Positions 27,752 to 64,000 are shown, counted from the first letter of the stretch. The stretch is 64,000 nucleotides of DNA from Candidatus Heimdallarchaeum aukensis (GCA_021513695.1 CP084166.1:1120001-1184000), one strand, 5' to 3'. Numbers and translations are program-made. Notes: generated from the letters alone by a model not told the origin.

Positions 27752-29266
27752 ATGCTTTATAAACTATTAAATTTTTTTGATTTTTTTCGACTTTTTTCTT
27801 TTTTTCTTTCTCTCATTCTTTTTCCTTATCAAAAAATAAATAAGAGTAAACTTACATTTTATATTATTATGCTTATAAAAACTGGTATTAATGAGCTTGA
27901 CCAGATGATTGATGGTGGTTTACGTACCCATTATTGTTATTCTATCAAGGGTTCTGCTGGTGCTGGTAAGACTGTTTTATCTATTTTTCTTGCTTGGGGT
28001 GCTCTCAATCAGGACATCCCTGTTGTTTTTATTAGTACTGAGATTGAACCTGATCGTATTATTCATTATTTTCACTCTTTTGGTCTTCCTGTTGAGGACT
28101 ACATTGACCGAGGGTTATTAGTCATTGATAAGATGTCTTTGAAGTCTTCTGGTGAGGAGATTATCCAGACTAACAGTTTTGATTTATCAGGTATTATTTT
28201 ACGTGTTACTAAGAAGATTGAGCGTATTCGAGCTAAGTTGGTTATTTTTGATTCTCTTTCTGCTTTTATTGCTGACTTTGAGTATAAAGACACTGCCCGT
28301 AGTAAGTATATTGATTTTATTAAGCGCATTACTAGTTTAGATACTTCTTTAATTATTACTATTGAGTGTGACCCTATTACTAGCAGTTCTCAGATTGACT
28401 ATTTAGTTGACGGTGTTATTGCTTTAAAGACCGAATTAATCAACAATCAGCTAATCAAGAAGATTTCTGTTCCTAAATTAAGAGAAGCCAAGCCTTTAGT
28501 TTATGAAAACCGTTATACTATTACTCAGAAAGGTTTTAGGATTTTCAAATCTGAGAGCGAGCCTTTGTTTACCGTTGATCGTTCTACTGGTATTAAGGTT
28601 TTGGACAATCTTTTAGGTGGAGGTATTGCTCGAGGTTCTGTTGTTTTAGTTGAGATCAATGGTGAGATTAATTATTTTCCTTTCTTCTTGACTCTTCTTT
28701 ACAATTATTTAACTCTAAACCATGGTGTTATCATTCATTCCAATGTTCAGATGAATGTTAATCGTATTTTGGAGGAGTTTGAGCGAGGTCAGTGTGACAT
28801 TTCTGACTACTTACGTGATGGTAATATTGTCTTTTTGGATAAGTACAATCGTTCTGTCACTGCTGTTGAAGCTAAAGAGATTCGTGATATGATTAACTTA
28901 GATGACATGTTAGCTATTACTGTTGAGATGATGCAGGCTTTTGGTTCTGACACTGAAGTTGTTGTTTTTGGTGATCTTACTGATGATGTTAACATTTTGA
29001 ATGAGCGTGATTTCTTAAAATTGTTTGCTCTTCAGTCTTACAACATTAAGGAGCATAATGCTATTTCCTTTTCTTTTATCAATTACAATGCTGTTGACAA
29101 AAAAATTCTCGCTCGTTTACGTACCACCTCTGATGTTATCATTCGTTTATCGCGTGAAAATTATTCTAACTACATTGAATGTTTGAAGAGCACTACTGGT
29201 GCTACATTTCTTGCTAAGAATATTGAATTTAAAAAAAGTTATCCTATGATTGAAATTGTTGAGTGA
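27752..29266 (+). CDS. KaiC-like tandem RecA-superfamily ATPase (N-domain with Walker A, degenerate C-domain); true start possibly at 27869 (MLIKTGINELDQ)
   Basis: GINELDQMIDGGL...IKGSAGAGKT (Walker A) in domain 1. Domain 2 (GIKVLDNLLGGGIARGSVVLVEINGE) lacks a P-loop. The first ~39 codons of the ORF are low-complexity and hydrophobic. Confidence 0.7.
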   Translation: MLYKLLNFFDFFRLFSFFLSLILFPYQKINKSKLTFYIIMLIKTGINELDQMIDGGLRTHYCYSIKGSAGAGKTVLSIFLAWGALNQDIPVVFISTEIEPDRIIHYFHSFGLPVEDYIDRGLLVIDKMSLKSSGEEIIQTNSFDLSGIILRVTKKIERIRAKLVIFDSLSAFIADFEYKDTARSKYIDFIKRITSLDTSLIITIECDPITSSSQIDYLVDGVIALKTELINNQLIKKISVPKLREAKPLVYENRYTITQKGFRIFKSESEPLFTVDRSTGIKVLDNLLGGGIARGSVVLVEINGEINYFPFFLTLLYNYLTLNHGVIIHSNVQMNVNRILEEFERGQCDISDYLRDGNIVFLDKYNRSVTAVEAKEIRDMINLDDMLAITVEMMQAFGSDTEVVVFGDLTDDVNILNERDFLKLFALQSYNIKEHNAISFSFINYNAVDKKILARLRTTSDVIIRLSRENYSNYIECLKSTTGATFLAKNIEFKKSYPMIEIVE

Positions 29267-29275
29267 GGAAGTATT

Positions 29276-29524: not shown

Positions 29525-29641
29525 TTGGTGAGAACTGCTTTCTTTTTGTTCTTTTTTTTGGTAAATTGTTTTTTTCGTTCTTTAATTCTACTTTCATCTC
29601 TATAAGAAAACTCTTTAAATTCTTTTCTTTTTTGTAAATTA

Positions 29642-32266
29642 ATGACTTGGTCCTTAAATGATTCAAAGCTTATCTATGGTGTTGATCAAAACGATCTTTA
29701 TTTTTTAGATATTAATGATCAAGGTGAACTTTTACTTAAGCTTAAGGATCAATCTATTTCTTTTAATGAAATCATCAATCTTGTTAAGTCTCAGTTTAAC
29801 TCTTCTTCTCTCTCTTCTGTTCCTTCATTTACTCTTCGCATTCCTCAATTAATAACTGAACAAATTTCCAAACTTAACACTTGTTTCCAGTCTGCTATTC
29901 ATCAATATCAATATTCTGGCAATTTTCAAGGCATCTATCCTATTAAAGTTAATTCTTTGAGTTATGTTCTTGAAACTATTAAAGCGAACAGTCCTTCCTA
30001 TGCTTTTGAAGCTGGAACTGTTAATGAATTAGATGTTTTGCTTTCTCTTCTTCGTGATGATAAAACTCGTATGATAATGTGTAACGGTGTTAAAGATTCA
30101 GACTATATAGATAAGATTAGAGGAGCTCTTAACGATGGTTATTCTATTGTTATTAGTTTGGAGTCATGCTCTGAGTCTACTACCATTCTTGATTTAATAG
30201 ACCATGATTTACTTAAACTTGCTTTGAGAATCAAACCCTATCCCACTGTTAAATCTCATTGGGGAAGTTCTTCTGGTCGCGATTCTAAATTTGGTTTATC
30301 TATTCATGAATTTAAGCGCATTATTAATTTGTTAGAAAAAAGAGGAGTAAAGGATAAAGTTATTGCTATTCACGCTCATCCTGGTTCTCAGATTATTGAT
30401 ATTGATGGTTTAAGGTTCTTTGTTCTGTATCTTTCAAACAGGTATTTAGAACTTAAGCGTCTTGGTTTCACCAACCTTAACAATATAGACTTTGGTGGAG
30501 GTATACCTATTAATTATGATAATAGGTTACCCTCTGACATTTTAGATAATTATGTTAAAACGCTTGTATTAACTCTAAAAGAGACTATCACCGATTCTGA
30601 CGTTCAACCTAATATTTGGATTGAAGCAGGAAGGTTTCTTACTGCTCCCTCTTCCTTAATTATTGTTGAAACTATTGCTCTTTACTCTATTTTCCCCTCT
30701 GAAGAGAGTTTAAATGACCATAAGGCTATGATTAGCTCAATGCTTGAAAAAATCACTCATCCTTCTTCGATACTTAATTTATTTTCTCATTGGACTGAAT
30801 TACAATCTCCTACAATCGACTCAAATGTTAACGAAATCTTGAAGACTGAAATTTTGATGAAACACTTAAAATTAGCTATCAGAGAAAAAATGATGAATTT
30901 TGATGATGAGCAAAAGTTCAACAGGATTTTTGATTTAGATTTGGATGAGATATTCTATGAGATTTATTCCCCTGAACATATCTTAATCGGTAATTTCAGT
31001 GTTTTCAATACTATTATTGATTGGTTACTTGTTGGTCAATATTTTCCTATTCTTCCTATAGACAATCTTGATCATCAACCTGTTTCTTTAGCTAGATTGG
31101 TGGATAAAACATGTGATTCTGATGGTGAGATATCTATTTACCATCCTGTCTTTAATGAAGAAAAGATTTTGTATACCAAGGATGGTTTTCCATTAACAGT
31201 CAAAGACAAGAAATTTAATCTCATGGGCTTTCCTATTGGTTGTTTGCCTACTAATTTCCCATATTATTTAGTTATTGCTTTAACAGGTGCCTACCAAGAT
31301 AACATTAAGATGCATCACAATCTAATTGAGCCATTAAGTAGTATTATTATCAAGCATGAGAATGGGCAGTGGACTATTACTAGCAGTTCTCAGATTGACT
31401 ATTTAGTTGACGGTGTTATTGCTTTAAAGACCGAATTAATCAACAATCAGCTAATCAAGAAGATTTCTGTTCCTAAATTAAGAGAAGCCAAGCCTTTAGT
31501 TTATGAAAACCGTTATACTATTACTCAGAAAGGTTTTAGGATTTTCAAATCTGAGAGCGAGCCTTTGTTTACCGTTGATCGTTCTACTGGTATTAAGGTT
31601 TTGGACAATCTTTTAGGTGGAGGTATTGCTCGAGGTTCTGTTGTTTTAGTTGAGATCAATGGTGAGATTAATTATTTTCCTTTCTTCTTGACTCTTCTTT
31701 ACAATTATTTAACTCTAAACCATGGTGTTATCATTCATTCCAATGTTCAGATGAATGTTAATCGTATTTTGGAGGAGTTTGAGCGAGGTCAGTGTGACAT
31801 TTCTGACTACTTACGTGATGGTAATATTGTCTTTTTGGATAAGTACAATCGTTCTGTCACTGCTGTTGAAGCTAAAGAGATTCGTGATATGATTAACTTA
31901 GATGACATGTTAGCTATTACTGTTGAGATGATGCAGGCTTTTGGTTCTGACACTGAAGTTGTTGTTTTTGGTGATCTTACTGATGATGTTAACATTTTGA
32001 ATGAGCGTGATTTCTTAAAATTGTTTGCTCTTCAGTCTTACAACATTAAGGAGCATAATGCTATTTCCTTTTCTTTTATCAATTACAATGCTGTTGACAA
32101 AAAAATTCTCGCTCGTTTACGTACCACCTCTGATGTTATCATTCGTTTATCGCGTGAAAATTATTCTAACTACATTGAATGTTTGAAGAGCACTACTGGT
32201 GCTACATTTCTTGCTAAGAATATTGAATTTAAAAAAAGTTATCCTATGATTGAAATTGTTGAGTGA
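29642..32266 (+). CDS. chimeric ORF: biosynthetic arginine decarboxylase (SpeA-like) residues 1..~579 fused in frame to the C-terminal half of the KaiC-like ATPase; a product of the tandem duplication
   Basis: The N-part is identical to 32644..34375 (SpeA). The C-part is identical to 28374..29266 (KaiC-like C-domain). The junction is at 31373/31374. Confidence 0.6.
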   Translation: MTWSLNDSKLIYGVDQNDLYFLDINDQGELLLKLKDQSISFNEIINLVKSQFNSSSLSSVPSFTLRIPQLITEQISKLNTCFQSAIHQYQYSGNFQGIYPIKVNSLSYVLETIKANSPSYAFEAGTVNELDVLLSLLRDDKTRMIMCNGVKDSDYIDKIRGALNDGYSIVISLESCSESTTILDLIDHDLLKLALRIKPYPTVKSHWGSSSGRDSKFGLSIHEFKRIINLLEKRGVKDKVIAIHAHPGSQIIDIDGLRFFVLYLSNRYLELKRLGFTNLNNIDFGGGIPINYDNRLPSDILDNYVKTLVLTLKETITDSDVQPNIWIEAGRFLTAPSSLIIVETIALYSIFPSEESLNDHKAMISSMLEKITHPSSILNLFSHWTELQSPTIDSNVNEILKTEILMKHLKLAIREKMMNFDDEQKFNRIFDLDLDEIFYEIYSPEHILIGNFSVFNTIIDWLLVGQYFPILPIDNLDHQPVSLARLVDKTCDSDGEISIYHPVFNEEKILYTKDGFPLTVKDKKFNLMGFPIGCLPTNFPYYLVIALTGAYQDNIKMHHNLIEPLSSIIIKHENGQWTITSSSQIDYLVDGVIALKTELINNQLIKKISVPKLREAKPLVYENRYTITQKGFRIFKSESEPLFTVDRSTGIKVLDNLLGGGIARGSVVLVEINGEINYFPFFLTLLYNYLTLNHGVIIHSNVQMNVNRILEEFERGQCDISDYLRDGNIVFLDKYNRSVTAVEAKEIRDMINLDDMLAITVEMMQAFGSDTEVVVFGDLTDDVNILNERDFLKLFALQSYNIKEHNAISFSFINYNAVDKKILARLRTTSDVIIRLSRENYSNYIECLKSTTGATFLAKNIEFKKSYPMIEIVE

Positions 32267-32275
32267 GGAAGTATT

Positions 32276-32524: not shown

Positions 32525-32643
32525 TTGGTGAGAACTGCTTTCTTTTTTTTGTTCTTTTTTTGGTAAATTGTTTTTTTCGTTCTTTAATTCTACTTTCATC
32601 TCTATAAGAAAACTCTTTAAATTCTTTTCTTTTTTGTAAATTA

Positions 32644-42601: not shown

Positions 42602-44359
42602 TTGCTGAAACATAAAAATAAGTTTATTTTGGATACAAACTTTATTATTAGTGCTTTTGAGAAAAACCCTTCCACAATTAACATTTTTATAAAGAAGATA
42701 AGAAGTCTCAATATTCAATTATTAATTACGAATCACATTATCAAAGAAGTTAGATGGTATTTACGTAGAAGAATAATAAATGAAATTACCATCAAAGAAG
42801 TCTCCACTAAAGAGATTAGGAAATTACTTTCTGAAATAGAAAAAAAGGGTATTTCACCACCACATTTTCCTGACTTATCAAACATAGTTTTAGCTAGAAA
42901 ATTGGAAGGTACAGTTGTAACAAGTGATCTTCAACTAGTAAAAACTTGCGAAGAATTGGGAGTACCAGTTCATATGTCATCTTCATTTGTGTTTTTTTTG
43001 AAAGAAAAGGTAAATAATTTTGAAGATAAGAAATTCTTCAACGAACTCTATGATATTATTCTTTCTGATGAGATTATGCACAGTGTGGAGCAGAGTGAGA
43101 CATATAATCCTGTCTATAGAATAAAAGAAATTCAATTACATGCGATTAAAGTTTTACAAAAACTACCTAAAATATCTCCTAATAAAACACAAGAAATGTT
43201 CTTTTTAAAAGAAGAGAATGAACTGTTGGACTTAATTAATGAAATTGAATTTGAGATGCCAAATTATATAACCCAAATTCAAGATGGTAAGGACTTAGAA
43301 ACTCTAGAGGTAGAACTGAAAGATATTTACAATCAAATTAATGACATTGTTTGGCAATTACAACTTCAGCTCAAAACGAGAAAGAGTCTTATTTTATCTG
43401 CATCTATAAGAATTAAAGCTAGAATACTTTTTGCTCTGAGTATTGTAGAATTTACTTTATTAAACTTTGAAAAATTAGAAAATACTTTGAATATTCTTTC
43501 AGAGATAGTATCCAGTTCACCAGACATGGTTTCAGATCTGTTTATGGATTTACAATTTCTCAGGATGGTTTTTCTTTTTGTCACCCAAAATTATAACAGA
43601 CTAACAGGATACTTTTCAGACAATTTTCTTTTATTGTGTGAAATTGAAAAAAGAAAAGATTTGACAAAGCTCACTAGAACAATAATTTTCGCTTGTACAA
43701 TTTTAGAAAGCAGGATAATAGATAAAAATGCTTCTTTAGAAGGTAAAAAAGAAATCTCTCTTTTATTCCAATTAGGCTATATTTTATTACAAAAAAGAAA
43801 TATTGAGAATGCTCTCCTTATCTTATTACAAACTCATTATTTAGCTCTACAAATTAAGGATGAAGAATTGATCCGAAATTCTCTAGAACTCATGATTGTT
43901 ATTCATTACATCTCCAATGAAAATATAAGTACTGAAATAGAACAAGGAATATTAGAATTAAAAAAAATTAATCCGTTTAATGTTCCTGTTTTTTCTATAA
44001 AAGAAGAATTAGATCTAAATATTTTTACTAATACAGAGTTTAAACAAATTGATGATTTTCCAAGCTTATTAAAAGAGTGGTTCTATATCTACGATTATTT
44101 GATAAAAGAAGAAGGACAAACAAAAACTGCAATATTTGTTATAAGTCCTTATTTTTCTCCTAAAACAGTTTTTATTACAACTCAACGTTTGCCAATGTAT
44201 GAACTTAGACCAGGAAGACAAATAAAAATAATAAAAGGAATGCTAAAAATTCGTAAATGCAGTTATAATTACGAGAAAAGAGAAGTTGATTTAGTTATTG
44301 AAATTAAAGAACCATTATTCTCTTTGAGAGATCCATGGGGAATGAAGATTATTAGGTAA
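42602..44359 (+). CDS. PIN-domain protein (N-terminal ~130 aa) with a long alpha-helical C-terminal region
   Basis: PIN acidic residues are in the right spacing (ILDTNFIIS ... EVRW ... VVTSDLQLV). Starts directly at the upstream stop. Confidence 0.5.
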   Translation: MLKHKNKFILDTNFIISAFEKNPSTINIFIKKIRSLNIQLLITNHIIKEVRWYLRRRIINEITIKEVSTKEIRKLLSEIEKKGISPPHFPDLSNIVLARKLEGTVVTSDLQLVKTCEELGVPVHMSSSFVFFLKEKVNNFEDKKFFNELYDIILSDEIMHSVEQSETYNPVYRIKEIQLHAIKVLQKLPKISPNKTQEMFFLKEENELLDLINEIEFEMPNYITQIQDGKDLETLEVELKDIYNQINDIVWQLQLQLKTRKSLILSASIRIKARILFALSIVEFTLLNFEKLENTLNILSEIVSSSPDMVSDLFMDLQFLRMVFLFVTQNYNRLTGYFSDNFLLLCEIEKRKDLTKLTRTIIFACTILESRIIDKNASLEGKKEISLLFQLGYILLQKRNIENALLILLQTHYLALQIKDEELIRNSLELMIVIHYISNENISTEIEQGILELKKINPFNVPVFSIKEELDLNIFTNTEFKQIDDFPSLLKEWFYIYDYLIKEEGQTKTAIFVISPYFSPKTVFITTQRLPMYELRPGRQIKIIKGMLKIRKCSYNYEKREVDLVIEIKEPLFSLRDPWGMKIIR

Positions 44360-45296
44360 GCTCTTCTTTCCACTCTTCTATAATGCCTATAATTTCTTCA
44401 ACGTCAATAGGTTTTCTTCTCATTTTTTCTATTAATTGACTCATTTTATGTCTCATAAAAGGTGATAGGGCGCCTGCTTCCATTAAAGCATCTCTTGCTT
44501 TATCAAAAGCTTTTATTATTTGTTCTTTATCTCTTGATACTGTTACGATAGTCTTAAGATTATCAAAAACTTTCTTGGGTTCAACACTCTCCCAATCTTC
44601 TTCAATCTTTGTCGCTTGAACTAATGAGGAAGTAACTAGAGCGTATCCTTCACCTATTTGTTTAATTAAACCCTTCTTTTCAAGGTTAAACATAAGCTGA
44701 TCTATTTTTCTTTTTTCTACTCCAAGTTCATTTGCCAGTGTTTCTGCGTTTTTTGGCAGATTTGAATTAGATAGAACTCCAAGAATTCTTTGAGATACAG
44801 TACCATTCTTCTTACAATATTGAACAAGAGAGGTTAAGGCATTAACAAATTTGTCATCAGTAGGTTTCGAATAGTAAGTTACTAATTCTTCTAGTAATCT
44901 GTCAATTTCTTCTGTCTCTATATGTACAGGAGTAAAACTTTCTTCTTCTTTTGGTTTAGTAAAAGTTTCTTTTTTCAATCTATCAATTTCTATTTCTAAA
45001 TCCCTTATTTTTAATTTAAGTTCATTTTCTCTTTCATTTCGAGCTTGAGCATCTTGTTCTTTCCAATATCGCTCTTCTTCCATTCTCTTGGAATATCTTT
45101 CTATTTCTTCATCTTTCTGCTGAATAACTTGTTTAAGTTTAGCTATCTCTGCATTTAAATTTTCTATCATATTTGATTGATGGGAGATGCGTTGTTGTAA
45201 TTGAGACATGTATTGTTCTTGAGCTTGCATTTGCAATTTCATGCGTCTAACATCATTATCACCTTCACCGTTTTCCCCATATGGAGTTCTTACCAC
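44352..45296 (-). CDS. coiled-coil protein with C-terminal TrmB/MarR-like winged-helix domain
   Basis: About 150 aa of heptad-rich N-terminus, then SQRILGVLSNSNLPKNAETLANELGVEKRKIDQLMFNLEKKGLIKQ. Confidence 0.5.
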   Translation of the reverse strand: MVRTPYGENGEGDNDVRRMKLQMQAQEQYMSQLQQRISHQSNMIENLNAEIAKLKQVIQQKDEEIERYSKRMEEERYWKEQDAQARNERENELKLKIRDLEIEIDRLKKETFTKPKEEESFTPVHIETEEIDRLLEELVTYYSKPTDDKFVNALTSLVQYCKKNGTVSQRILGVLSNSNLPKNAETLANELGVEKRKIDQLMFNLEKKGLIKQIGEGYALVTSSLVQATKIEEDWESVEPKKVFDNLKTIVTVSRDKEQIIKAFDKARDALMEAGALSPFMRHKMSQLIEKMRRKPIDVEEIIGIIEEWKEELT

Positions 45297-45364: not shown

Positions 45365-46009
45365 TTAACCCAATATTTCTAACAATATGATTTCAAATAT
45401 TTTCTTACATCTTGAAACATTTGAATAGGGCCATTTCTTGTCTTCAGTATTAAGAACATAGTCTGCTAAAGCCATTACTGAGCCTACCCCATAACCTAGT
45501 TCTTTTTTATTTCGTGCTAGAAAATTATCAAAATTCCTTAAATATTCATCTTCCTTCGCTTTAGAACTATTTTCTCCTTCTTTTCTATCAGGATTATCTA
45601 AACGTCCAAATCTGGTTCTCAAAGAAGCATGGAATGCAATAAGGAAGACATTTGTTTCTCCAAAATGTTTTTTCAAAACTTCAATTTCAGAAACTGCTCG
45701 GATCCCAGAGACAAAAACTGCTTTAATTTCTTCATCTAAATTGTCAATCTTCTCAATCAATCGTTCGGTAAAATAACTATCAGATATCTTCTTACAATCA
45801 TCTGTAACCTTCTTAATATTTTCTGGGATAAAATCATAACCTCGTTTTTTCACTTCTTCCAAGACTACTGTTCCAGTTTCAAACAGAGGAATATTGTACT
45901 TTTCTCCAAAAATTTTAGCATAAGTTGTTTTTCCTGCTAATGGAAGAGATGTGAGAACTATAACTTTCATACTCTCAATTTCATGTGGTATAAAATAAAT
46001 TTTTCTCAA
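45365..46009 (-). CDS. P-loop NTPase / nucleotide kinase-like protein (UPF0200 / dephospho-CoA-kinase-like)
   Basis: Walker A SLPLAGKTT at the N-terminus. About 214 aa. Confidence 0.5.
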   Translation of the reverse strand: MRKIYFIPHEIESMKVIVLTSLPLAGKTTYAKIFGEKYNIPLFETGTVVLEEVKKRGYDFIPENIKKVTDDCKKISDSYFTERLIEKIDNLDEEIKAVFVSGIRAVSEIEVLKKHFGETNVFLIAFHASLRTRFGRLDNPDRKEGENSSKAKEDEYLRNFDNFLARNKKELGYGVGSVMALADYVLNTEDKKWPYSNVSRCKKIFEIILLEILG

Positions 46010-46199: not shown

Positions 46200-46460
46200 A
46201 TGGAAAACCAAAAAGGCAAAATTCCTATATTTCAAGTTGATGCTTTCACTGATAAAGCCTTTCAAGGCAATCCTGCAGCTGTTTGTATCTTAGAAGAAAA
46301 ATACTCTTTTTCTGATTCTTTACTACAAAAAATAGCTCAAGAAATGAATCTTTCTGAAACAGCTTTTATTTACGTGAAAGATCTAGATCAAATTACTAAC
46401 CAAAGTGAGTTCAGGTTACGTTGGTTTACCCCAAATAAAGAAGTCAAAATGTGTGGACAT
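46200..46460 (+). pseudogene. phzF-family (phenazine-biosynthesis-like isomerase) gene, 5' part, interrupted by IS insertion after ...KMCGH
   Basis: IPIFQVDAFTDKAFQGNPAAVC...AFIY...RWFTP..EVKMCGH, then PhzF homology stops. It resumes at 48326 with (H)ATLASAAVLF. Confidence 0.75.
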
Positions 46461-48325
46461 GATTTACTTTTTTACGTAAAGTTTTTCACACTCTGTCTTG
46501 CAAGAGAGAAAACTAAAGGAAGTTTAATCTCTTGAACTCAACCAAGCCATACAATGCCATGAAGGGGTTGAGACAGACATCATACACGAATCGTGGGAAT
46601 CATAAAGAAGAATAGAAAGTTTTTCTTTCTTTTCTTCACTCCACGAGAGACAAAAAAGAAAGAAAGAAAGAAAGAATTACTCCTATAATAGAGAAGGAGT
46701 TACTTTCCTTTTTGTCTACTGGGACTGCAACCAATGGCTGAGCCCTCGGCAAACAGTGAAATGGGAAGAACTGAACCTTTGACCAGTGAGGTAATCAGTG
46801 ATAGTTGTTCCTCGAGGACGAAAAAGAGCACCAAGGAACTTACGAGCGATATTCATTGCCCCTGTGAGGTCAGAGTGGAAAGTGTAGTTACAGGAAGAAC
46901 AATGAACTAAACCTCTAACGGGACGGATAACTTTTCTCCCACAACGAGCACAGTAAGAAGATGTCCCTCTTTCTCCTATTGTTAATATTCGGTGAGGTTC
47001 AAAACCTCGAAGTATCAATGCTCGACGAAGAAGAGCAAGAACAAGAGAAAAGTTCCACTGATGAAGTTTCCTGCGAAACTTACGAGTACTTTTACCTTTT
47101 CCTTTCTCCTCGCGAACATGTTTAGGGTAACCTACAACGACGAAAAGGTCATACATTCGCGCATAGGTCTCTATCGTCTGCACAACCTCACTTATAAATT
47201 GGTGAATATATGCTCGTTTAACGTTTCTATATCTTCTTCGGAGGAGACTAAGAAAACGATAAACTTGATGTTTTTTACCCGACTGGTCATTTAAAGCTGC
47301 TTTCCTCTGAAGACGGGAAAGTTTGAGTTTATATCTATGATTGACTCTATTCCACTGTTTGGTATACCAAAATTTTATCTCTTTACTTGTTAATTTCTTT
47401 TTAGGGGTTAGTAACACTCCTGTAGCAGGAATGTTTATACCTAGATCTATTCCCAGCACAGCTGGGGGAAGAGAAGAAGAACTTTTTTCTTTAGTAGGAT
47501 AAAAAGAAGGAGGAGGAAGAACTCTTAGTTGGAAATACACCCACCATTCAAGTGTAGAACGTTTATATCTTAGTTCTAAACTTTTTATTCGTCCTTTCTT
47601 TAATTCCTTCTGGTGGAAAGTGCTCATCTCTAAAGGTAACCATAGTTTCTGATGATAAGGTGTGTTTCTTTTCCATGTATCTAACGAGTCTCTTATCCCC
47701 ACCCACCAACGAGTGAGAGTGTTATTCTTCTCTTTAGGTAGATGGACGAGAACGAACCTCTTTGCATTAATTAGTTGTCTTCTTGCTCTCTTTATGGGTG
47801 GACGAGTATTATTAGGTCTATACCCTTGTTCATATAACTGTACGGCTATATCTCTACACTCTTGAAATTCGTTGTGGGAACAATAAGGGAACATTTTCTT
47901 CAGATCGTGAGGGACATTCTTTCTTCTCTCTTCTTCTTTAACTTTGGAAGTAGTTAGCGTCAGTTCATCTAGTTTTCCTCTATGCACTCTTATTTTCCCT
48001 TTTTTAGTTTTAGTACATATTTTTCTTCTGTTATGATGTATAATTCTCACATATTTTTCTATTATCCTCGTATCTCTTCCCGTTATTCTCCTTAACCTTT
48101 CCTTCTTCCTCGTCGTCAATACCTCCTTCTTTATTCTCACTTTCAAGGTTTTGACGACGTCCTCCACCATCTTTCTCTTTTCTCCTTCTTTCCTCTTTTT
48201 TTGTTTCTTCTTCTCTTTTTTTTATTATACTTTTTTCCCTATAAAAACCCCTCTCCTTCCTCTCCTCTCTTCTCTTTTTTTTTTATTTTGCTGTCAACAA
48301 CTGTAAACTACGTAAAAAATAGACG
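46461..48325 (-). mobile_element. IS200/IS605-family (IS1341-like, solo tnpB) element inserted into phzF-like gene; no target duplication
   Basis: The original target reconstructs as GGACATG|CAACCC. The element is bounded by ATTTACTTTTTTACGTAAAG... at the left and ...AACTACGTAAAAAATAGACG at the right (short imperfect inverted ends around ACGT). Subterminal hairpins are at 46540..46568 (CTCAACC...GGTTGAG) and 46495..46506 (CTCTTGCAAGAG). Confidence 0.75.
46716..48170 (-). CDS. tnpB: TnpB (RNA-guided RuvC-like nuclease, IS605 OrfB family), second unrelated family with intact zinc finger
   Basis: RuvC-I LGIDLGINIPATG, zinc finger CARCGRKV...CSSCNYTFHSD, RuvC-III DLTGAMNIARK. 484 aa. Confidence 0.8.
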   Translation of the reverse strand: MVEDVVKTLKVRIKKEVLTTRKKERLRRITGRDTRIIEKYVRIIHHNRRKICTKTKKGKIRVHRGKLDELTLTTSKVKEEERRKNVPHDLKKMFPYCSHNEFQECRDIAVQLYEQGYRPNNTRPPIKRARRQLINAKRFVLVHLPKEKNNTLTRWWVGIRDSLDTWKRNTPYHQKLWLPLEMSTFHQKELKKGRIKSLELRYKRSTLEWWVYFQLRVLPPPSFYPTKEKSSSSLPPAVLGIDLGINIPATGVLLTPKKKLTSKEIKFWYTKQWNRVNHRYKLKLSRLQRKAALNDQSGKKHQVYRFLSLLRRRYRNVKRAYIHQFISEVVQTIETYARMYDLFVVVGYPKHVREEKGKGKSTRKFRRKLHQWNFSLVLALLRRALILRGFEPHRILTIGERGTSSYCARCGRKVIRPVRGLVHCSSCNYTFHSDLTGAMNIARKFLGALFRPRGTTITDYLTGQRFSSSHFTVCRGLSHWLQSQ

Positions 48326-48934
48326 CATGCAACCCTTGCTTCAGCAGCAGTCTTATTTAATGAGTTTAAGATTACAACTAACATCATTGAATTTGAAACT
48401 TTAAGTGGTTCTTTACTTGTATCAAAGAAAGATAATGATTTTTATTTGGATTTCCCCATTTCTAGTTTGTTCAAAGATGAAGAGAATTATCAAGAACTCA
48501 TTTCTGCTTTAGGAATCGAAGAAGCATTAAACATCGAATATTGTGAAACTTTAGACTATCTTATAGTTGAAGTGGAAAACGATCAAATTGTAGAAGATCT
48601 AGCCCCTAATTTTCAAAGAATGTTAGACAGTCATTTACCTAAGAATGTTGGATTAGTAATTGTTACTTCTAAATCTACTTCTAACAAAGATTTTGACTTT
48701 GTTTCTCGTTGCTTTGCTCCTTGGTTTGCTATCAATGAAGACCCTGTAACTGGTTCTGCTCATACTATTTTGTATCCTTACTGGTCAAAAAGGCTAATGA
48801 AAAAAGAACTTATTGCTTACCAATGTTCTCCACGAGGAGGAATTCTTCATCTTCAACCTTCAACTTCTCCTGATAGACTTTATATAGTAGGAAAAGCAAC
48901 TGTTGTTTTACATGGTCATCTATTTCTTGATTAA
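48326..48934 (+). pseudogene. phzF-family gene, 3' part (resumes in frame 2: HATLASAAVLF...; track ORF 48446..48934 is its distal portion)
   Basis: FDFVSRCFAPWFAINEDPVTGSAHTILYPYWS...SPRGGILHL matches the PhzF C-terminal domain. Confidence 0.75.
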
Positions 48935-53916: not shown

Positions 53917-53928
53917 AGATGTTACAAA

Positions 53929-54360: not shown

Positions 54361-54411
54361 ATTATGTGGGGAAACTTTATTTATTTCTATTCTTTTTTTT
54401 CTTGATAAAAA

Positions 54412-56716: not shown

Positions 56717-58471
56717 ATGCCACTTGAAACAAAAAATAACTATTTCAAACCTGTTGAACCAAAAAAATACATTGGACAGCAAGAAATCATTAAGAGTTTC
56801 AATGAACTTATAAGCAAGTTTAAAGTTGGAGAAACAGAGAAAAGGTCTGTTCTAATCATAGGAAATAATGGTACTGGAAAATCTTCGCTTCTTTTCAAAT
56901 TATCAGATTATATTAGTGGAAGAAGAGACATAAAAACAATTTACAACATTAAGCCAATAAAAGAACAAGTTGAAGGATTCTTTAGAAATTGGTTAAATGA
57001 CATCGATAAGCTTACTCCTAGCTGGGGAGGTATTTTTGAAAAGATCCCTGAACTTCCTCTTCTAAAGGATGATAATAGAATTACTGATGAAAAAGAGTAT
57101 GTAAAAAACTTTACTGATAAGTTCTTCGAAAAGATGAACAAAATCGATAAAAAATTAAAGAGTGAAAAAATAAGGCTTTATTTTTTCATCGATAATACTT
57201 CAATCTTTAGAATGATGAGATATTCTATTTTCTATAAGATTTTTTCACAAATTATTGATGAAATAGCAAAAAAAGGTTTCAATCTTTTCGTTGTAACAAC
57301 TATAGACGAACTTTTCCTTTCAGAAATTGATGTCGAAAAGAAACTTACTTTCAATTCTGAAATCTTCAAACTAGAACCATTAACAGAGGCGGAAGCTCAG
57401 ATTTTCATAAAGGAAAAATCTCCTGAATTGAAATCATCTGATGTTTTAGAGCTTCTTGAAAATAGTGAAAGGACATATTTTGATCTTGTTTTAGCTATAT
57501 ACTTCATAGAGAAGAAGCTATCTGTAACTGATTATGTTGAAAAGAACATCGTAAAACTGCTTGATATATCTGAAGAGGAACATGAAGCTCTCCAAGAAAT
57601 GAGCACCTATTCTGAGAATCTATTTCCTGAAGAAAGACTACTTAAGTTCATTCAAAAGGAAACTTTAGATAATTTAGAAAAAAAAGGTCTAATCGAATAT
57701 TTTGGTGACTATATCCGTTTTACTCAAAATGCTCTTTTAGACGTGGTTAAATTTAATGAAAAATTGTATTCTACATTGACAATAATTATGATCAAACTTG
57801 ATAAAATACATCATGATTTAGAGAGTAACATAATACCGACAGATATTGAGTTTCAAGAATTGAGAAAAATAACTTCACGAATTCACGATGGACTGTCATA
57901 CAATGTTGTTGGAGCAAAAGTTAACCAAATAATTAAACTACTAATTAAGAAAAAAGAGTTCCAAAAAGCTTATGATTTTGCTTTATTAAACATAAACAAT
58001 TTTGACCAACTTCATGATTTTGTAAGAGCAGCTACTATCGCAGAAAAGGTAGGAAGAGATTTAGAAGAAAAACACTACGCCTTTGCTGGAAAATTGTATT
58101 ATAGAGCTGGTATTTTTTACGAGACTATGAAAGAAGATTCAAAAGCTAAACGAGCATTTATTCGTGCAGCTGATCAATTTGAGAAACAATTTTCCTCATT
58201 AGATGCTAAAAACAGTCCTTATTTATTGAGAGCGCATATAAAATCATGTTTAGATTGCTACAGAAAAGCAAAAGATGAAACTAAATTTAGAAGAATCAAA
58301 GAAAAAGCAATCAAAATCTTCCCTGAAGAATCGATACATCATCGTTACATCAGTGAAATTAATTACAAGAAAATAGAAGCCATACAAGCCACTCCAATTA
58401 TAGAAGAACCAAGAGAAGAAGAAAAGAAATCCATAGATATCGACGATTTAGAAAAAGAATTAGAATTTTAG
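56717..58471 (+). CDS. Arch_ATPase-family P-loop NTPase (archaeal ATPase, PF01637-like) with helical C-terminal half
   Basis: N-terminal pattern YIGQQEIIKSFNELISKF...RSVLIIGNNGTGKSSLL typical of the archaeal-ATPase family. About 300 aa of alpha-helical, repeat-like C-terminus. Confidence 0.55.
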   Translation: MPLETKNNYFKPVEPKKYIGQQEIIKSFNELISKFKVGETEKRSVLIIGNNGTGKSSLLFKLSDYISGRRDIKTIYNIKPIKEQVEGFFRNWLNDIDKLTPSWGGIFEKIPELPLLKDDNRITDEKEYVKNFTDKFFEKMNKIDKKLKSEKIRLYFFIDNTSIFRMMRYSIFYKIFSQIIDEIAKKGFNLFVVTTIDELFLSEIDVEKKLTFNSEIFKLEPLTEAEAQIFIKEKSPELKSSDVLELLENSERTYFDLVLAIYFIEKKLSVTDYVEKNIVKLLDISEEEHEALQEMSTYSENLFPEERLLKFIQKETLDNLEKKGLIEYFGDYIRFTQNALLDVVKFNEKLYSTLTIIMIKLDKIHHDLESNIIPTDIEFQELRKITSRIHDGLSYNVVGAKVNQIIKLLIKKKEFQKAYDFALLNINNFDQLHDFVRAATIAEKVGRDLEEKHYAFAGKLYYRAGIFYETMKEDSKAKRAFIRAADQFEKQFSSLDAKNSPYLLRAHIKSCLDCYRKAKDETKFRRIKEKAIKIFPEESIHHRYISEINYKKIEAIQATPIIEEPREEEKKSIDIDDLEKELEF

Positions 58472-58481
58472 GTGAAATAAG

Positions 58482-59921
58482 GTGTCAGAAAAAGAAATTA
58501 GTAAATTCAGTAAAGAAATAGAAAATTTAGAAAATGAAATTTTTGCACTAAATAGTTCTCTAGAAGAACTACAAGCTTTTGATAAATATTATAGCGAGCT
58601 TTTACAAATAATTCAGAATAAACTACTCTCGCTGAATGAAAAGCTTCGAGAATTGCATGATAACTCACATAAAGAATTAACGAATAATGTTGAAACAATC
58701 GAGGAAAAAACAAAGAATCTAACTCAAAAATGGACTGAAACAAATAAAGAAACAGTATCAACAGAGTTAAAGAACATAGGTGAAAAGTTAAACAATCTAA
58801 AGATAAAATTTGTTGAAAGTTTAAATTCAAACAAAAAAACAATTGAAAACTTATCCCAAAAATTTGTAAATGATATTAACAATATTATTAACACACACAT
58901 ACAAGAGTATGAGCGTTTTTCTACTAATCAAGTTAAGACAACAAGAGACAGTTTTACAGACATGAAAAAAGAGTTATCAGAACTACATTTGAACAGCATA
59001 AAAGAATTAGAAAAGAATACAAAAGATATAAGGACTAATTTTGATGCCAATATTAAAATTAATGAAGATATTCTGAAAGAGAGTATTCAACACTTGAGAT
59101 CAGAATATCGTGACAAATTAACTATGAATATGGAAGGAGTTTTTGAAAGTTTTGAGCGAATTAAAGACGAACTAGGTAACATGGTTACAAATACTATCCA
59201 AAAAATCCAGAATGAACTTTCAGGAATTACAGAAACAATGGATAAATACCTTATTCAAGAGATTTCTAAGATTCAAGAAATCTTAGGAGATTATGAAGAA
59301 GGAATGTTAGATGTAAACAATATAGTTATGAGTAACTTCGATGCATCTAAAAATGAACTGTTACAAACTTATGATGATCTTACAGAAAAATACATTTCTA
59401 AATACAAGAATGCGTATGCAGAACTTGAAGAGAATTACATAAAGAATAATGAATCAATATTAGAGGGTTTAGTTTCTAAATCTCAAGAGATGGTTCAGAG
59501 AGCAAAAACTGAATTCAGTCAACAACAAGAAAATATCAGTTCAATTTTAGAACAAACACACGAACAAATTATAAAAGATACATCTTACTTAGAAAGATTA
59601 TCTCAGGAACAGTTCAGCAAAATACAGCAAAGCATAGAAAGTTCATCTACTAAAATAAAAACGACCATAGAATCTTCACAAAATGATGTTAATTCTGCTC
59701 TTTCTGAACAAACTGTATCTACTAAAGAAAAAATCAACGAGTTAATTGCTAATATCAAAAAACAGGTTAAAGATCTACAAGAAAGTTCATTGAAGGCTTT
59801 AGATGAAGAAGCGAAACTTAAGATTACAGAAGCGGATAAAGCACAAAAAGAAAAGATAAAGGTAATTAATCAATTGAAAAAGACTAGTAAAACAATAGAG
59901 AAAATTAAAGAAGAACTTTAG
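58482..59921 (+). CDS. coiled-coil protein (479 aa)
   Basis: Heptad-rich, E/K/N/L-dominated throughout. Starts 11 nt after the upstream stop. Confidence 0.5.
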   Translation: MSEKEISKFSKEIENLENEIFALNSSLEELQAFDKYYSELLQIIQNKLLSLNEKLRELHDNSHKELTNNVETIEEKTKNLTQKWTETNKETVSTELKNIGEKLNNLKIKFVESLNSNKKTIENLSQKFVNDINNIINTHIQEYERFSTNQVKTTRDSFTDMKKELSELHLNSIKELEKNTKDIRTNFDANIKINEDILKESIQHLRSEYRDKLTMNMEGVFESFERIKDELGNMVTNTIQKIQNELSGITETMDKYLIQEISKIQEILGDYEEGMLDVNNIVMSNFDASKNELLQTYDDLTEKYISKYKNAYAELEENYIKNNESILEGLVSKSQEMVQRAKTEFSQQQENISSILEQTHEQIIKDTSYLERLSQEQFSKIQQSIESSSTKIKTTIESSQNDVNSALSEQTVSTKEKINELIANIKKQVKDLQESSLKALDEEAKLKITEADKAQKEKIKVINQLKKTSKTIEKIKEEL

Positions 59922-59933
59922 GAAGTGAAAAAA

Positions 59934-62900
59934 TGGAGTCCACGTTAGAGAAAATGGGTTTATCAAAAGAAGAAATAGAGGTTTACGCAAATATTGTTCA
60001 ATTTGGTTTCAGAACAATTGGGCAAATACAAGTATATACAAAAACAAATACTGAAACTATTGTACAAGCTTTAAATAAATTAGTAGAAAAAGGTTATATT
60101 AAAGAAATAAAACCAAGAAAGCCAGAAGGCACTTCAATATTCATTCCTCTTCCTCCTCAAATTAAACTTACAGAAGATGTGGCAAAGAGATTAGATAACG
60201 AATTATCAGCTCTAAGTAAAGAAGTAAGTGAAGATTGGAATAAAACAATCACTTTATTACGTAAAGAATTACTCTCTTTTCACGAGAATATATCTTCTAA
60301 CATTGGAGAACATAAAAATCATATTTCTGCTGATGCAAACAAATTTCACTCTAATATGAATGAACTTATTGATAAAAAGAGAACAGAGTTAGAAAACGCG
60401 ATTTCAAAAATTAACCAAGAAATAAAAACAATCCTAGAGACTGATGAAGAAAATCTCCAAAAATCTTCAGAAAGAGTAAAAGAAACAATAAATAATAGTT
60501 TTGATACTACTATTCACAAAATAGGTGAATTTCACGATAATTTCAAATCAAAAATTGAAGAAACATACCAAAAACTAGAAGATAAGCATAAAGAAAGAAT
60601 CGAGAAACAAAAAGAGAACATTCAAAATAAGCTTCAAGAGATCTCTGAATTAGCAAAGAGCAATCTTGACAAAAATTTAGCTGTTTTAGATGAAAATCAG
60701 GTAATTGTTAATGAAAAAACTTCTGATGTTTTTTCTGATTTAGCTGAAAAGAGTAACAGTGTTGGAAATAATAGCATTGAATCAACAAAGAAAACAATTA
60801 GCTCGATCATAGAGGAATATAAAGGAAAAATTAACCAATATCAATTAAATGTTAAAGAAATTTTAAGTTCTCTAAACGAAGAACTAACAGCTCTTGAGAA
60901 TTCAACGAATGACAACATTATTCAAACCATTACTCAAGCTAAAGATATCGCTATTTCTGTACTAAATGAGAATGAAAAACAATTCATAAAGTTAGTAGAA
61001 GACACAAAAACAAATGCAGTTCAGAAACTAAGTCAACTTATTTCTGAAACAGGAGAGAAGAATAACAATGCAAAAGAGGAATTAATCTCTGCATTAAAGG
61101 ATTATCTCTCCCAATTTGAAGAGAATAGCAAAAATCTTCTTGACTTACTAAAAAATGGAATAAACGCAGGTTTTGCTAATTTACAAGATGGATTAGAAAA
61201 ATCAATTACTCAACTCAATGAACAGATAACAGCTATGCAAGAAGACATAGAAGAATTTGTTGAGACATATATTGGCTCTTTATTCGAAGATATTGAAAAC
61301 ATTAAACAAACCATACTAACAAAATTAAATACAAATATTGAAAAGTTCTCAAAAGACACAACTGACAAACATAAGAAGAACAAAGAACTGATCGCAAAAA
61401 TAGAAAATGACTTCACTCAAGCTACTACTGATATTATTAAGAAATCAAATGAAATGATAGTAAGTGAAACAGAGAAAATATCTTCTGAAATAAAAGAAAA
61501 CAAAGAAAAACTGAAGGAAGAAAATACCTCTTTCCTTACAATAATTAATGAAAACATAGAGAGTTACAAGGACACACTTTCTGAAACTATGAAACAACTT
61601 TCTGAAAATAAGCAAGAGTTCAATTCATTCTTTGTAGAACACCTGGAAAACTTGAAAACTGAAGTAATAGAAAAAATAGAAGCTAATAAAGATACAAATA
61701 TCGAAAATATACAAAAGAAACTAGATTTAAAGAACGAAGAATATGCTTCAAAAATCAATGATTTTGTAGAAGAATATCTACAAAAGTCTAGAGATATAAG
61801 AGATGAAACACCAAATCTCGTTGAACTAGAATATACAAAGGCTTCTAACAAAATCAATGAACTAAGTTCTACTCTATCAGAACTTATCAGTGCCTTCACT
61901 TCTATGGTTAATGAGATTTATGAAAAAATAGATGAAAAAGCCGCCAACAAGTTATTTGGTAAAGGTGAAGGATTAAACTTCATTGATAGATTAGAAAAGA
62001 TCAAGAATGATAATCAAAACATAGCTGAAAAAGTAAAAACAGATCTTGACACACTTTATCGCACTTTTGAAAGTTCTAAAGAAAAATTAAGTGAAGATAT
62101 TTTTTACAAAATGAATAGACATATTGAATCCTTTACAAGTTATAACGAGGAAAATATTACAAAGTTTAAAGAATTCATGGAAAATACAAAGAAAGAAATT
62201 AAAGAAAGCTTGGATTCTGCAACAGGAGAATTAAAAAATAAGATAAACGTTGAGATGTCAGAATATAAAACAGCTTTTGATACACAAATTAATGATAAAT
62301 TCATAATATTATCTTCGTTAGTTGGTGAAGAAATAGAAAATAAAACAGAGGATTTACTTGAGATTGACACTTTAGAAGACTTTTTCACGAAGGTAAAAGA
62401 TGAAACCAGTACAAAAATTAAAGAATTTGTTAAAATGCTTGATTCATCACTTACTAAACAGGAAAAATCTTCTGATTCTTTGCACAAATCTTTAGTTAAA
62501 AAACTTGATGAATTACAGATACAATCTCTGAAGACACTAAATAAAGCTAAAATAGAGTTAGAAAAAGTAAATGATGAAATTACTACAGAGTCGAACTCTC
62601 TTCTTCAGACAACTGTAGAAAACATGGAACAAGATATTGAAAACACAATTACAGAGAGTAAGGAAAAAGCAAATGAAAAAGTGGCTGAAAAGAAAGAAGA
62701 ACTAACCAAAATTGTCACAGAGAGTATTGATGGTTTAGTAGAATCAAAGAATAGAATTCAAGCTGAAATAGAAAAAAGTAACAATGATGTTTTTGCTAAT
62801 TTAGATGATTCAATTGTTAAAAATATAGAGTCACATTCAGAGCTAGTAGACTCATTATCTAACAAGATGGACAATTCAATGGTAAGTTTACAAGCAGAAC

Positions 62901-64000
62901 TCGATGAAGCAAAGAAAGCTTTGGACACAGAAGTCAGTGATACTTTAGATAAAGCTTCTGAAGATTATAGTACTCATACTAACAAAGTCAACAAGGAAAT
63001 AGAAGAAAAGATCAATGAAAAAATAAACGAATTCAAAGAACAGTTTAGAGAAATCACTGCAGAGATTTCTGTAGATCCTGAGAAGGAATCACCTTTAGAT
63101 GAAACTACTTCAGAAATTATTGCTCAGTTAGAAAAAATAACGAAACAGTATCCTTCTCAAATGAAGAAAGAGAGAGATGAATATGTGGAAAAGATTAAAG
63201 AAACATTGTCTCAATTCCAAGAATCTACTCAAACTAAAATTGATACAATAATATCAAGTGTAAAGAAAGATGTGCAAAATGTTTTCGACTCTTCTTCTGA
63301 GTTCCTTGGTAAAAGTATCAATGAAATAGAACAAAGTTTTGAAAAAGAAGTAAACGATTATACTTTAGCGGTAAATTACGATGTTAATACACTTGTAAGT
63401 TCATCTGACAGCAATTCAGGAGCTCTGGTTACCAATATTCAAAGTACAAGAGACTCATTAATTGATACAATTGACGTAACAAACAAATCCATCGCTTCGA
63501 ATTTGGATACAATCGAAAAATCAACTAATGATGCTCTAGCTGTTTTTCTCTCATCTACTTTAGAACAATTGAAAGAGATTTCTCAAGGAACAGAGGAGAT
63601 TCTCAATCAAAAAGACGCTTATCTAAAAACAGTAGATGAATTTAGAGACAAATTCATTGAAACAAATACAAGTATTATTGACAAGGTTGAAAAAGATGTT
63701 TCAAAGACCTTAAAGACTATTCCTGAAAAGATCAAGAATGTTTTAGAAGCAACAGCTGATGCAATGGAATTAATGCGTAAGGTTCTATCTTTAGGAGCAG
63801 GAATTGAGCCTAAAGCAATTGAAGAAACCTGGGTAGTTTATGGTAAAGAGCAAGTAGATTCAGCTATAATGTCAATGTTTTCTCGAACAAAACGATCCTT
63901 AACTGCTGTAACACCTTACTTAAATTGGATGGACATCGAAACCTTGGAACAGGATGCTAATATTTCAAGAAAGAGGATTGAAATTATATCTGATATGGGT
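59934..64000 (+). CDS. giant coiled-coil protein with N-terminal TrmB-like winged-helix DNA-binding domain; over 1350 aa within the window, 3' end beyond the window
   Basis: Open frame from ATG 59934 to the window end (not in the ORF track because it has no stop). The N-terminus MESTLEKMGLSKEEIEVYANIVQFGFRTIGQIQVYTKTNTETIVQALNKLVEKGYIKEI matches the TrmB-type HTH. The remainder is continuous coiled-coil-like sequence. Confidence 0.6.

Follow-up and report, generated by a model that had tools for sequence, protein, structure and literature searches.

A conserved three-gene module of Heimdallarchaeia centred on a giant TrmB/TrmBL2-family protein with predicted antiparallel hendecad arms

Near one end of the 64,000-nucleotide stretch of Candidatus Heimdallarchaeum aukensis DNA analysed here (CP084166.1:1120001-1184000; hereafter the window) lies an operon, at positions 56717-64000, of three genes that we call g1, g2 and g3. 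Their conservation in related genomes supports the view that the three genes make up a conserved functional module of Heimdallarchaeia. The third gene encodes a giant protein that qualifies as a complete member of the TrmB/TrmBL2 family, with a winged helix-turn-helix (wHTH) domain, a helix and a phospholipase D (PLD)-like domain, in which the helix has been expanded about 40-fold into two long arms predicted to pair with each other in antiparallel fashion. As to function, our leading suggestion, held with a little less than even confidence, is that the module organises or tethers DNA or chromatin structurally and is not a gene-specific regulator.

The open reading frame (ORF) list and direct translation place three co-directional genes on the + strand: g1 (56717..58471; 584 residues), which encodes a STAND-type P-loop NTPase, g2 (58482..59921; 479 residues, GTG start), which encodes an all-helical hendecad rod protein, and g3 (59933..64000), the gene of the giant TrmB/TrmBL2-family protein, with 1356 codons inside the window. 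The tight, co-directional packing described in the initial annotation is correct, with gaps smaller than the 11-13 nt it gave: the g1-g2 spacer measures 10 nt and the g2-g3 spacer 11 nt, and each carries a Shine-Dalgarno-like purine motif (GGTGA/GGAAGTGA). The start of g3, first placed at 59934, moves one base earlier to an ATG at 59933. That g3 runs off the window was rightly noted, its frame being still open at position 64000, and the full length sought from the adjacent contig has been obtained from an overlapping public contig (L001), which gives a protein of 1440 residues; read in the window frame across L001, the gene stops 255 nt past the window, at merged coordinate 64255, with an oligo-T run next. 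L001, a Logan contig (SRR15988958), differs from the window solely by a 1-nt deletion, where GG has become G (L001 position 6913, window position ~63947), that frameshifts g3, which is consequently called there as a truncated 1364-residue protein and a small ORF; the frame of the window is the continuous one. A scan for sigma-70 promoters and terminators was uninformative for an archaeon.

The proposal that the three-gene neighbourhood be checked in related genomes has been borne out by about 15 loci in which the synteny of the triad is kept, in two clades and two different genomic contexts. These loci were recovered by look-ups of neighbouring genes, pattern scans of collections and an exhaustive g2 search; a word-index search with full-length g3 returned two orthologues alone, since low-complexity candidates swamp the index. 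Gene order, strand and spacers of 0-15 nt are retained in L002, L003, L005/L006, L007, L009 and L013-L017, and again in a distant clade comprising L018-L023, while the contigs L008 and L010 also have g1 and end before the remaining genes. Homologues of g1 amount to a handful among 5.8 billion proteins, all the source-named ones being from Heimdallarchaeaceae or Heimdallarchaeota metagenome-assembled genomes, and an exhaustive HMMER search with g2 of 1.84 billion representative proteins gave 14 matches only. It was the weak matches among these that led to the second, far more divergent clade, one member of which is annotated as Kariarchaeaceae. The proteins of this clade measure 557-562 (g1), 428-479 (g2) and 1473-1477 (g3) residues, the two loci whose GC was measured, L018 and L019, gave 41-50%, and its genomic neighbourhoods differ from those of the first clade (clade 1); the L018 g3 has a composition rich in S, T and A. 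Overall, g3 orthologues span 1256-1489 residues, and identities to the window proteins are 37-42% for g1, 30-40% for g2 and 30-37% for g3; for g1 orthologues a range of 37-48% was also recorded. Two M24 peptidases and DUF61, the housekeeping neighbours of the operon in the Heimdallarchaeaceae loci, are 47-67% identical, as against 30-42% for the operon genes, and in the 14 Heimdallarchaeaceae-type loci fetched, wherever the flanks are available, the M24 peptidases lie upstream and GAPDH downstream. This pattern of divergence between operon and flanks, together with the constant neighbours, argues for vertical inheritance at a stable chromosomal site and not for a mobile island.

In most of the related genomes a divergent gene of 135-153 residues, winged-helix-like and probably a local regulator, is found upstream of g1 (L002 9401-9808, L003 1740-2156, L007 3942-4388, L008 767-1198, L009 9346-9780, L010 5648-6082, L013 3249-3668, L015 3213-3671 and L016 3227-3658). 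Its L009 copy has no match in Pfam, and tblastn finds none of these genes in the window or in L005/L006. A 214-residue ORF of the window (45365..46009) was considered as a homologue and rejected, as it encodes an AAA_17 kinase-like protein.

The two ends of g3 place it in the TrmB/TrmBL2 family. By Pfam and profile search, the N-terminal residues 1-74 (59933..60154, + strand) form a TrmB-type wHTH: the domain scores 31.9 bits with PF01978 (TrmB) against a cut-off of 25.6, and a profile built from nine g3 orthologues and compared with the PDB matches TrmB (3QPH) with E = 1.7e-8 over residues 3-101, and TrmBL2 with E = 0.07. Both results agree with the TrmB-type winged helix that had been annotated at this terminus, and the 3QPH alignment extends from the wHTH into the following helix, which in g3 begins at about residue 78. 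At the opposite end, residues 1285-1440 (63785..64000, + strand, with 72 residues in the window) form a conserved, globular C-terminal domain, which spans 146-155 residues after the arm in the 13 orthologues measured. No match to this domain was found in Pfam or, with a single sequence and two profiles, in the PDB, and its profile retrieved family members alone from 5.8 billion proteins. An AlphaFold2 (AF2) model was made on the orthologue P0010, for which Foldseek lists TrmBL2 first (5BQT, 5.8e-9), then TrmB (2F5T) and then proteins of the PLD fold, and two independent fold searches agree on TrmBL2/TrmB. The protein has neither an HKD motif nor the C-terminal sugar-binding sub-domain of TrmB and TrmBL1, and 146-155 residues leave room for a PLD-like sub-domain alone, as in TrmBL2. 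Membership in the TrmB family is thus assigned because the N-terminal domain passes by sequence, the C-terminal domain matches by fold and the order of the domains is kept. What had been described as a wHTH fused to a filament is instead the whole TrmB/TrmBL2 layout with a hugely expanded helix.

This helix has an unusual periodicity. Coiled-coil analysis of g2 and g3 gives a single sharp Fourier peak at 3.66-3.67 residues (= 11/3), which makes the rods hendecad and not heptad; the power in g3 is 11.4 over the whole rod and 16.7 over residues 85-640 (period 3.67), compared with 1.2 +/- 0.26 and a maximum of 2.5 in the composition-preserving shuffles that served as control, and the power at period 3.5 is at background in both rods. 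A hendecad signal with a power of 15 is present as well in the compositionally unrelated L018 protein. In every homologue the phase is constant over 470-595 residues even though the lengths of the segments differ by ~33 to 120 residues, so that insertions and deletions have preserved the 11-residue register. Positions a, d, e and h make up a hydrophobic core filled with I, L and F, lysine is enriched on either side of the hydrophobic face, and glutamate in the middle of the polar face. The N-arm helix (residues 75-655; 60155..61897, + strand) keeps its register unbroken over residues ~85-640, and the C-arm helices (residues 696-1284; 62018..63784, + strand) have register breaks near residues 775-800, 1010-1035 and 1160-1190. 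In place of the more than 1300 residues of continuous coiled coil first proposed, the rod therefore comprises ~1210 residues (75-1284) interrupted by a hinge and by register breaks, the last 72 codons of the window belonging to the globular domain. The rod contains five prolines in its 1210 residues and shows no spectral peak at 22 residues, and the net charge of the arm is -64 to -97 per chain; arms as acidic as these argue against binding of DNA or membranes along their length.

Several profiles respond to this pattern. The Pfam Apolipoprotein model (PF01442) scores 115.6 bits on g3 in eight overlapping stretches, against a cut-off of 90, as well as 91.9 bits on the L018 protein and 53.9 (below the cut-off) on g2, and the ZorA models of PADLOC, of which ZorA3 is best, reach 79 bits on g3 and 32 bits on g2, the LmuB models matching weakly. 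The 11-residue amphipathic periodicity accounts for the Apolipoprotein and ZorA-tail matches, which we take for likenesses of period and not for homology. Since the Apolipoprotein A1/A4/E score does exceed the gathering cut-off, it has also been considered that the hendecad regions are helices for lipid surfaces, like those of apolipoproteins, perilipins and synucleins, in which case the proteins would be a DNA-membrane tether or a membrane or vesicle coat, and the hairpin would open on lipid. A periodicity of 11/3 is a hallmark of lipid-surface helices, the placement of lysine beside the hydrophobic face and of glutamate in the middle of the polar one would suit them, and PLD-fold domains such as MITD1, which appears among the fold-search matches, can bind membranes. 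We regard this explanation as quite improbable, given that so negative a net charge is unfavourable on anionic membranes, that the large core residues at a, d, e and h are of the coiled-coil kind, that the mirror conservation and covariation of the arms described below point to pairing between helices, and that there is no proline punctuation, signal peptide or transmembrane segment.

The antiparallel pairing of the arms is organised around a central hinge or apex (residues 656-695, with FGKGEG at 675-680; 61898..62017, + strand), a short heptad stretch with glycines at which the hendecad phase jumps. It is the sole conserved glycine-containing break, it stands at the mid-length of the rod, and both the break and the phase jump are present in the two clades. 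Its ~40 residues hold no cysteines, no globular hinge domain and no CxxC zinc hook; a lysine-rich apex was considered and discarded, as the net charge of the hinge (-2 to +2) shows no more than a lower acidity than in the arms. When the N-arm is counted as the stretch between wHTH end and hinge, and the C-arm as that between hinge and C-terminal domain, the lengths of the two arms are 601/610 residues in the window, 633/627 in L002, L003 and L014, 639/627 in L005, 516/520 in the L009 clade (four loci) and 623/626-629 in the distant clade (four loci with ~20% mutual identity). The L009 clade has lost ~230 residues as two blocks, which lie 141-264 and 135-268 alignment columns to either side of the hinge. 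Conservation along the N-arm, when reversed, correlates with that along the C-arm at r = 0.85 unshifted and at no more than 0.43 when shifted by +/-25 residues, and the parallel comparison gives -0.05. A scan for the fold centre over residues 300-1100 peaks at position 710 with the L009 clade left out (r = 0.75; hinge at 707) and, independently, at 705 in the distant clade (r = 0.74; hinge at 704). The most conserved motif of the C-arm, SDSNSxxLVTNIQST (63404..63448, + strand), at which AF2 predicts a helix break, is 483 residues from the hinge centre, and its proposed partner in the N-arm, IHKIGE (60512..60529, + strand), is 481 residues from it. Residues equidistant from the centre thus evolve together, as predicted for an antiparallel two-stranded arm, and in this sense the alignments show the predicted pairing of the g3 arms around their hinge. 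Its simplest reading is most probably an intramolecular hairpin, which the conserved central helix break and phase jump, and nothing else, favour over a swapped dimer; at 0.15 nm per residue, a hairpin of ~600 residues would make a rod of ~90 nm rather than one of ~200 nm.

The smaller rod protein, g2, has a hydrophobic period of 3.66 with a power of 10.4, compared with the same 1.2 +/- 0.26 in shuffles, and a phase that is constant over residues 23-440 in six homologues and does not break at the centre. Its length in clade 1 is 479-486 residues. A conserved central block (residues 196-295; 59067..59366, + strand) has its core motif, FESF...DKYL at residues 221-258, at exact mid-length, with 220 residues before it and 221 after, and in the 463-residue g2 of L021 these counts come to 214 and 211. 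The conservation profile mirrors itself around residue 240 with r = 0.88, a weak test for a profile with a single conserved hump. The motif at mid-length and the unbroken register suggest a rod with two-fold symmetry, which could be, for instance, an extended antiparallel dimer of ~65 nm. The idea that g2 arose as a duplicate of part of the g3 arm was considered: hhalign gives 94% probability at 16% identity in several alternative registers, a result that is indistinguishable from shared periodicity.

Coiled-coil-rich proteins of bacteria and archaea are known to form filaments (PMC10869688), and the symmetry of both rods raises the question whether g2 and g3 are cytoskeleton-like, polymerising as extended antiparallel dimers into cables, with DNA binding as a secondary property. 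The absence of a register break at the symmetric centre of g2 is as expected of an extended antiparallel dimer, and the symmetry of g3 also fits a domain-swapped extended dimer. This possibility overlaps with the structural one that we prefer; taken by itself we think it unlikely, as the exact centre of g3 is marked in both clades by the break and the phase jump, and as the protein keeps domains of a DNA-binding family at both termini; no polymerisation motif was identified.

The product of g1 is laid out as a nucleotide-binding domain, a helical and winged-helix domain, a TPR/alpha-SNAP-like solenoid and an acidic tail. For an AF2 model built from nine sequences (predicted local distance difference test, pLDDT, of 81), the top PDB match of Foldseek is the STAND-TPR protein PH0952 (6MFV, 7e-9), followed by 8DGC (2.8e-8) and the archaeal ATPase SSO1545 (2FNA, 1.1e-6), with further matches to Avs3, Avs4, NLRP9, AVAST5 and ORC/Cdc6 in a range from 7e-9 to 2e-5. 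Modelling thereby shows a predicted STAND fold for g1, which also has the features of the class, namely a P-loop with Walker A and B, a helical and winged-helix module and a C-terminal repeat sensor. From the earlier label of an Arch_ATPase P-loop protein the P-loop can be kept, while the family matches in Pfam are below threshold (AAA_16, 21 bits against 32.6; nSTAND1, 18.9 against 27.1) and the homologues match PF01637 and PF13191 (AAA_16) weakly. The Walker A motif GNNGTGKSS (residues 49-57; 56861..56887, + strand) is invariant in clade 1, whereas in the distant clade L018 and L021 have an arginine in place of its lysine. A Walker B-like strand identified by alignment, LYFFIDN (residues 154-160; 57176..57196, + strand), follows the pattern hhhhD and retains the aspartate without a catalytic glutamate after it. 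The solenoid (residues 338-547; 57728..58357, + strand), which AF2 models as paired helices, matches chains of Sec17/alpha-SNAP with a Foldseek E of ~4e-5, and the L018 orthologue has a weak Pfam match to SNAP. The tail (residues 575-584, ...DLEKELEF; 58439..58468, + strand) is nearly invariant in clade 1, where all g1 proteins carry the consensus (I/L)E(D/N)(L/I)EKEL(E/D)F after a disordered linker, and the distant clade lacks it; a role as TPR-domain ligand or as an autoinhibitory tail is conceivable.

The resemblance of the g1 fold to Avs3, Avs4 and AVAST5, when combined with the PADLOC ZorA matches to g3 (79 bits) and g2 (32 bits) and the weak LmuB matches, might be taken for antiviral defence, with g1 as an Avs-like STAND sensor and the coiled-coil proteins as effectors analogous to LmuB of Lamassu or to the ZorA tail. 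Such a role appears very unlikely. The ZorA matches are restricted to the coiled-coil tail of the profiles, no PADLOC Avs model matches g1, and the operon has no MotA-like membrane domain, ZorB, LmuA or LmuC partner, nuclease or other effector domain. Unlike a mobile defence island, moreover, it has constant housekeeping neighbours and a divergence that fits vertical descent.

With these components, the structural role that we favour can be sketched as follows. The short dimerisation helix of TrmB would have been replaced in g3 by ~1200 residues of hendecad coiled coil, and the hairpin would bring the C-terminal domain back beside the wHTH, so that a stiff, strongly acidic arm of ~90 nm would carry a TrmBL2-like head at its base. 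The heads of g3 may bind DNA in the manner of TrmBL2 and the arms may act as spacers or bridges of fixed length, with the g3 apices and g2 rods as links from DNA to further segments of DNA or to some other structure of the cell. In g1, the TPR/SNAP-like solenoid would be the likely docking surface for the helical rods, and g1 itself might serve as a nucleotide-dependent switch for assembly and disassembly. An ordinary repressor that binds operators would hardly be expected to have a length-conserved rod of ~90 nm with a net charge of -64 to -97, and this makes a structural role plausible; to that extent, the view of the initial annotation that the operon encodes a structural apparatus rather than a transcription factor is partly supported. 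A bolder version, which we consider doubtful, would have the module be an SMC-independent, long-arm DNA-organising machine of Heimdallarchaeia, composed of a TrmBL2-derived head on a ~90 nm hendecad hairpin, a symmetric rod and a STAND NTPase with a bundle-gripping solenoid, which drives assembly and disassembly; the action of the g1 solenoid on helical bundles would then be comparable with that of NSF and SNAP on SNARE bundles. If this were true, the device could bridge or tether chromatin across 100-200 nm.

A more conventional role, as a signal-responsive TrmB-type regulator of a few promoters, has also to be weighed. MalT is a STAND-type ligand-sensing regulator; in a similar way g1 would sense a ligand, and the rods would scaffold or space the complex. 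The full set of TrmB-family domains in g3 speaks for it, as does the classic role of TPR-sensor STAND proteins as signal switches, and the small wHTH gene that is divergent to the operon in most genomes implies that the locus itself is regulated. It is nonetheless an unlikely account of the module. A length-conserved arm of ~90 nm has no precedent and no obvious use in operator binding, and the N-arm is exactly 623 residues long in four proteins that share ~20% identity. The C-terminal domain, which has no TrmB/TrmBL1 sugar-binding sub-domain, resembles the chromatin protein TrmBL2, and a dedicated partner rod of 479 residues is conserved alongside.

Several points weigh against the organisation of DNA by a g3 hairpin with its partners. 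That the three proteins touch one another is conjecture. The link of the C-terminal domain to TrmB comes through fold comparison alone, without any sequence-level similarity, and the orthologue model used has a low-confidence pLDDT of 56. For a putative DNA-binding head, the wHTH of g3 has a roughly neutral net charge (+1). The independent classes of arm length number three or four only, and mirror symmetry and arm covariation would fit equally well an extended, domain-swapped antiparallel dimer, ~180 nm long and headed at both ends. Finally, the replacement of the Walker A lysine by arginine and the missing catalytic glutamate mean that NTP hydrolysis by g1 may be weak or absent.

Elsewhere in the window, the third coiled-coil and wHTH gene of the initial annotation (44352..45296, - strand) does encode a coiled coil, which is of heptad type, unlike the hendecad rods of g2 and g3, and a wHTH (weak TrmB match, 20.5 bits). 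In L002 and L003 the gene adjoins the operon; outside these two loci it is unlinked. The 314-residue protein it encodes forms a convergent pair (42602-45296) with a 585-residue PIN-domain protein on the + strand, and this pair, with 42-45% identity, stands beside the operon in L002 and L003 and 11 kb off in the window, and was not found in the other loci fetched. The block at 52981-56520 (a zinc-ribbon membrane protein, DUF61, a creatinase-like M24 peptidase and an M24 peptidase) has the opposite orientation and position in L002 (2934-6470), which suggests that the lineages differ by a local inversion or rearrangement; GrpE-DnaK-DnaJ adjoins the zinc-ribbon/DUF61/M24 block in the window and in L005. 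Further away, a tandem duplication of ~3.0 kb, in which 28374-31373 is repeated at 31374-34375 with exact runs of 1174 and 1821 nt and one 2-nt homopolymer difference, is either very recent or an assembly artefact. Its junction creates a chimeric ORF (29642..32266), the C-terminal ~290 residues of which are identical to the ORF at 27752..29266; from inspection by eye, we take the N-terminal part of the chimera to be like a biosynthetic arginine decarboxylase and the ORF at 27752..29266 to be KaiC/RecA-like. A PhzF-family gene lies in two pieces, at 46200..46535 (profile positions 1-76) and 48446..48934 (positions 115-281), on either side of a TnpB/Cas12f-like ORF (46716..48170, - strand; Pfam Cas12f1-like_TNB, 32.9 bits), an insertion sequence element inserted into that gene. 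An extra coiled-coil gene suspected at 24-28 kb from a high AT skew was rejected, the skew being due to membrane-protein genes on the minus strand.

In our literature searches, which did not cover all journals, nothing was found on a coiled-coil-expanded TrmB, on giant hendecad proteins from Asgard archaea or on a g1-g2-g3 operon, in accordance with the initial statement that no characterised system of this architecture is known. Its nearest relative in layout is TrmBL2, which likewise consists of a wHTH, a dimerisation helix and a domain at the C-terminus and which forms tetramers and, without sequence specificity, stiff filaments on DNA (PMC4877046); it has also been described as a roadblock to SMC (PMC11840125). 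The TrmBL2 of Thermococcales (PDB 5BOX, 5BPD, 5BPI and 5BQT) has ~264 residues with a helix of ~30 residues, whereas g3 proteins have 1256-1489 residues with a hendecad hairpin of ~1200 residues in the same place, show no detectable sequence similarity to TrmBL2 in the C-terminal domain and are always accompanied by two dedicated partner genes. From the sugar-responsive TrmB (PDB 3QPH and 2F5T), g3 differs in having no sugar-binding beta-barrel sub-domain and in the enormously greater length of its helix. The protein is, in short, a radically new variant of the TrmB family. For g1, the likeness to STAND-TPR proteins (PH0952, 6MFV; SSO1545, 2FNA; Avs3/Avs4; MalT) extends to the P-loop domain, the helical and winged-helix module and the C-terminal repeat solenoid, and the differences are its sub-threshold Pfam scores, the absence of an effector domain and a solenoid that is also alpha-SNAP/Sec17-like.

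The rods have counterparts of other kinds. The stalk of tetrabrachion is a hendecad coiled coil. Further hendecad coiled coils have been described, for example in the EG peripheral stalk of A/V-type ATPases (PMC6131620, PMC3293630). Such stalks share with g2 and g3 the period of 3.67 and a core at a, d, e and h, which produce straight or right-handed bundles; they are parallel homo-tetramers or short heterodimers, whereas the g3 register runs over 470-595 residues in what appears to be an antiparallel hairpin, and there is no sequence relationship. With an arm length that is constant to the residue at ~20% identity and a register that does not break, g3 would offer the study of coiled coils an exceptional natural molecular ruler. 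To the apolipoproteins (PF01442) and the ZorA tail, the overlapping matches are confined to the repetitive helical parts, a likeness of composition and periodicity that does not speak for common descent; unlike apolipoproteins, g3 has no proline-punctuated 22-mer repeats and no secretion signal, and its N-terminus is a wHTH.

The comparison of widest interest is with SMC, Rad50 and MukB. An assignment of g3 to a known SMC, Rad50 or methyl-accepting protein family was considered and rejected, for no such profile of Pfam or NCBIfam reaches its curated cut-off; the strongest SMC matches are SMC_prok_B on g2 (18.4 bits against 567) and SMC_N on g1 (15.5 against 40), with none on g3. The protein lacks an ABC ATPase head, a P-loop, a globular hinge, a zinc hook and a kleisin partner, its coiled coil is hendecad where that of SMC and Rad50 is an interrupted heptad, its arm would measure ~90 nm compared with ~50 nm, and the NTPase is a separate protein of STAND type. 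The predicted topology is nevertheless similar, with N- and C-terminal domains brought together at one end of a long coiled coil, which runs antiparallel and turns back at a central hinge, arm lengths that co-vary and conserved discontinuities part-way along, comparable with the 'joint' or 'elbow' of SMC. Should this architecture hold, an antiparallel arm like that of SMC and Rad50 would have evolved on a different head, a DNA-binding one without ATPase, as a convergent means of acting at ~100 nm. It would have done so in a vertically inherited core module of the archaea closest to eukaryotes, in which the organisation of chromatin and of the cell bears on eukaryogenesis.

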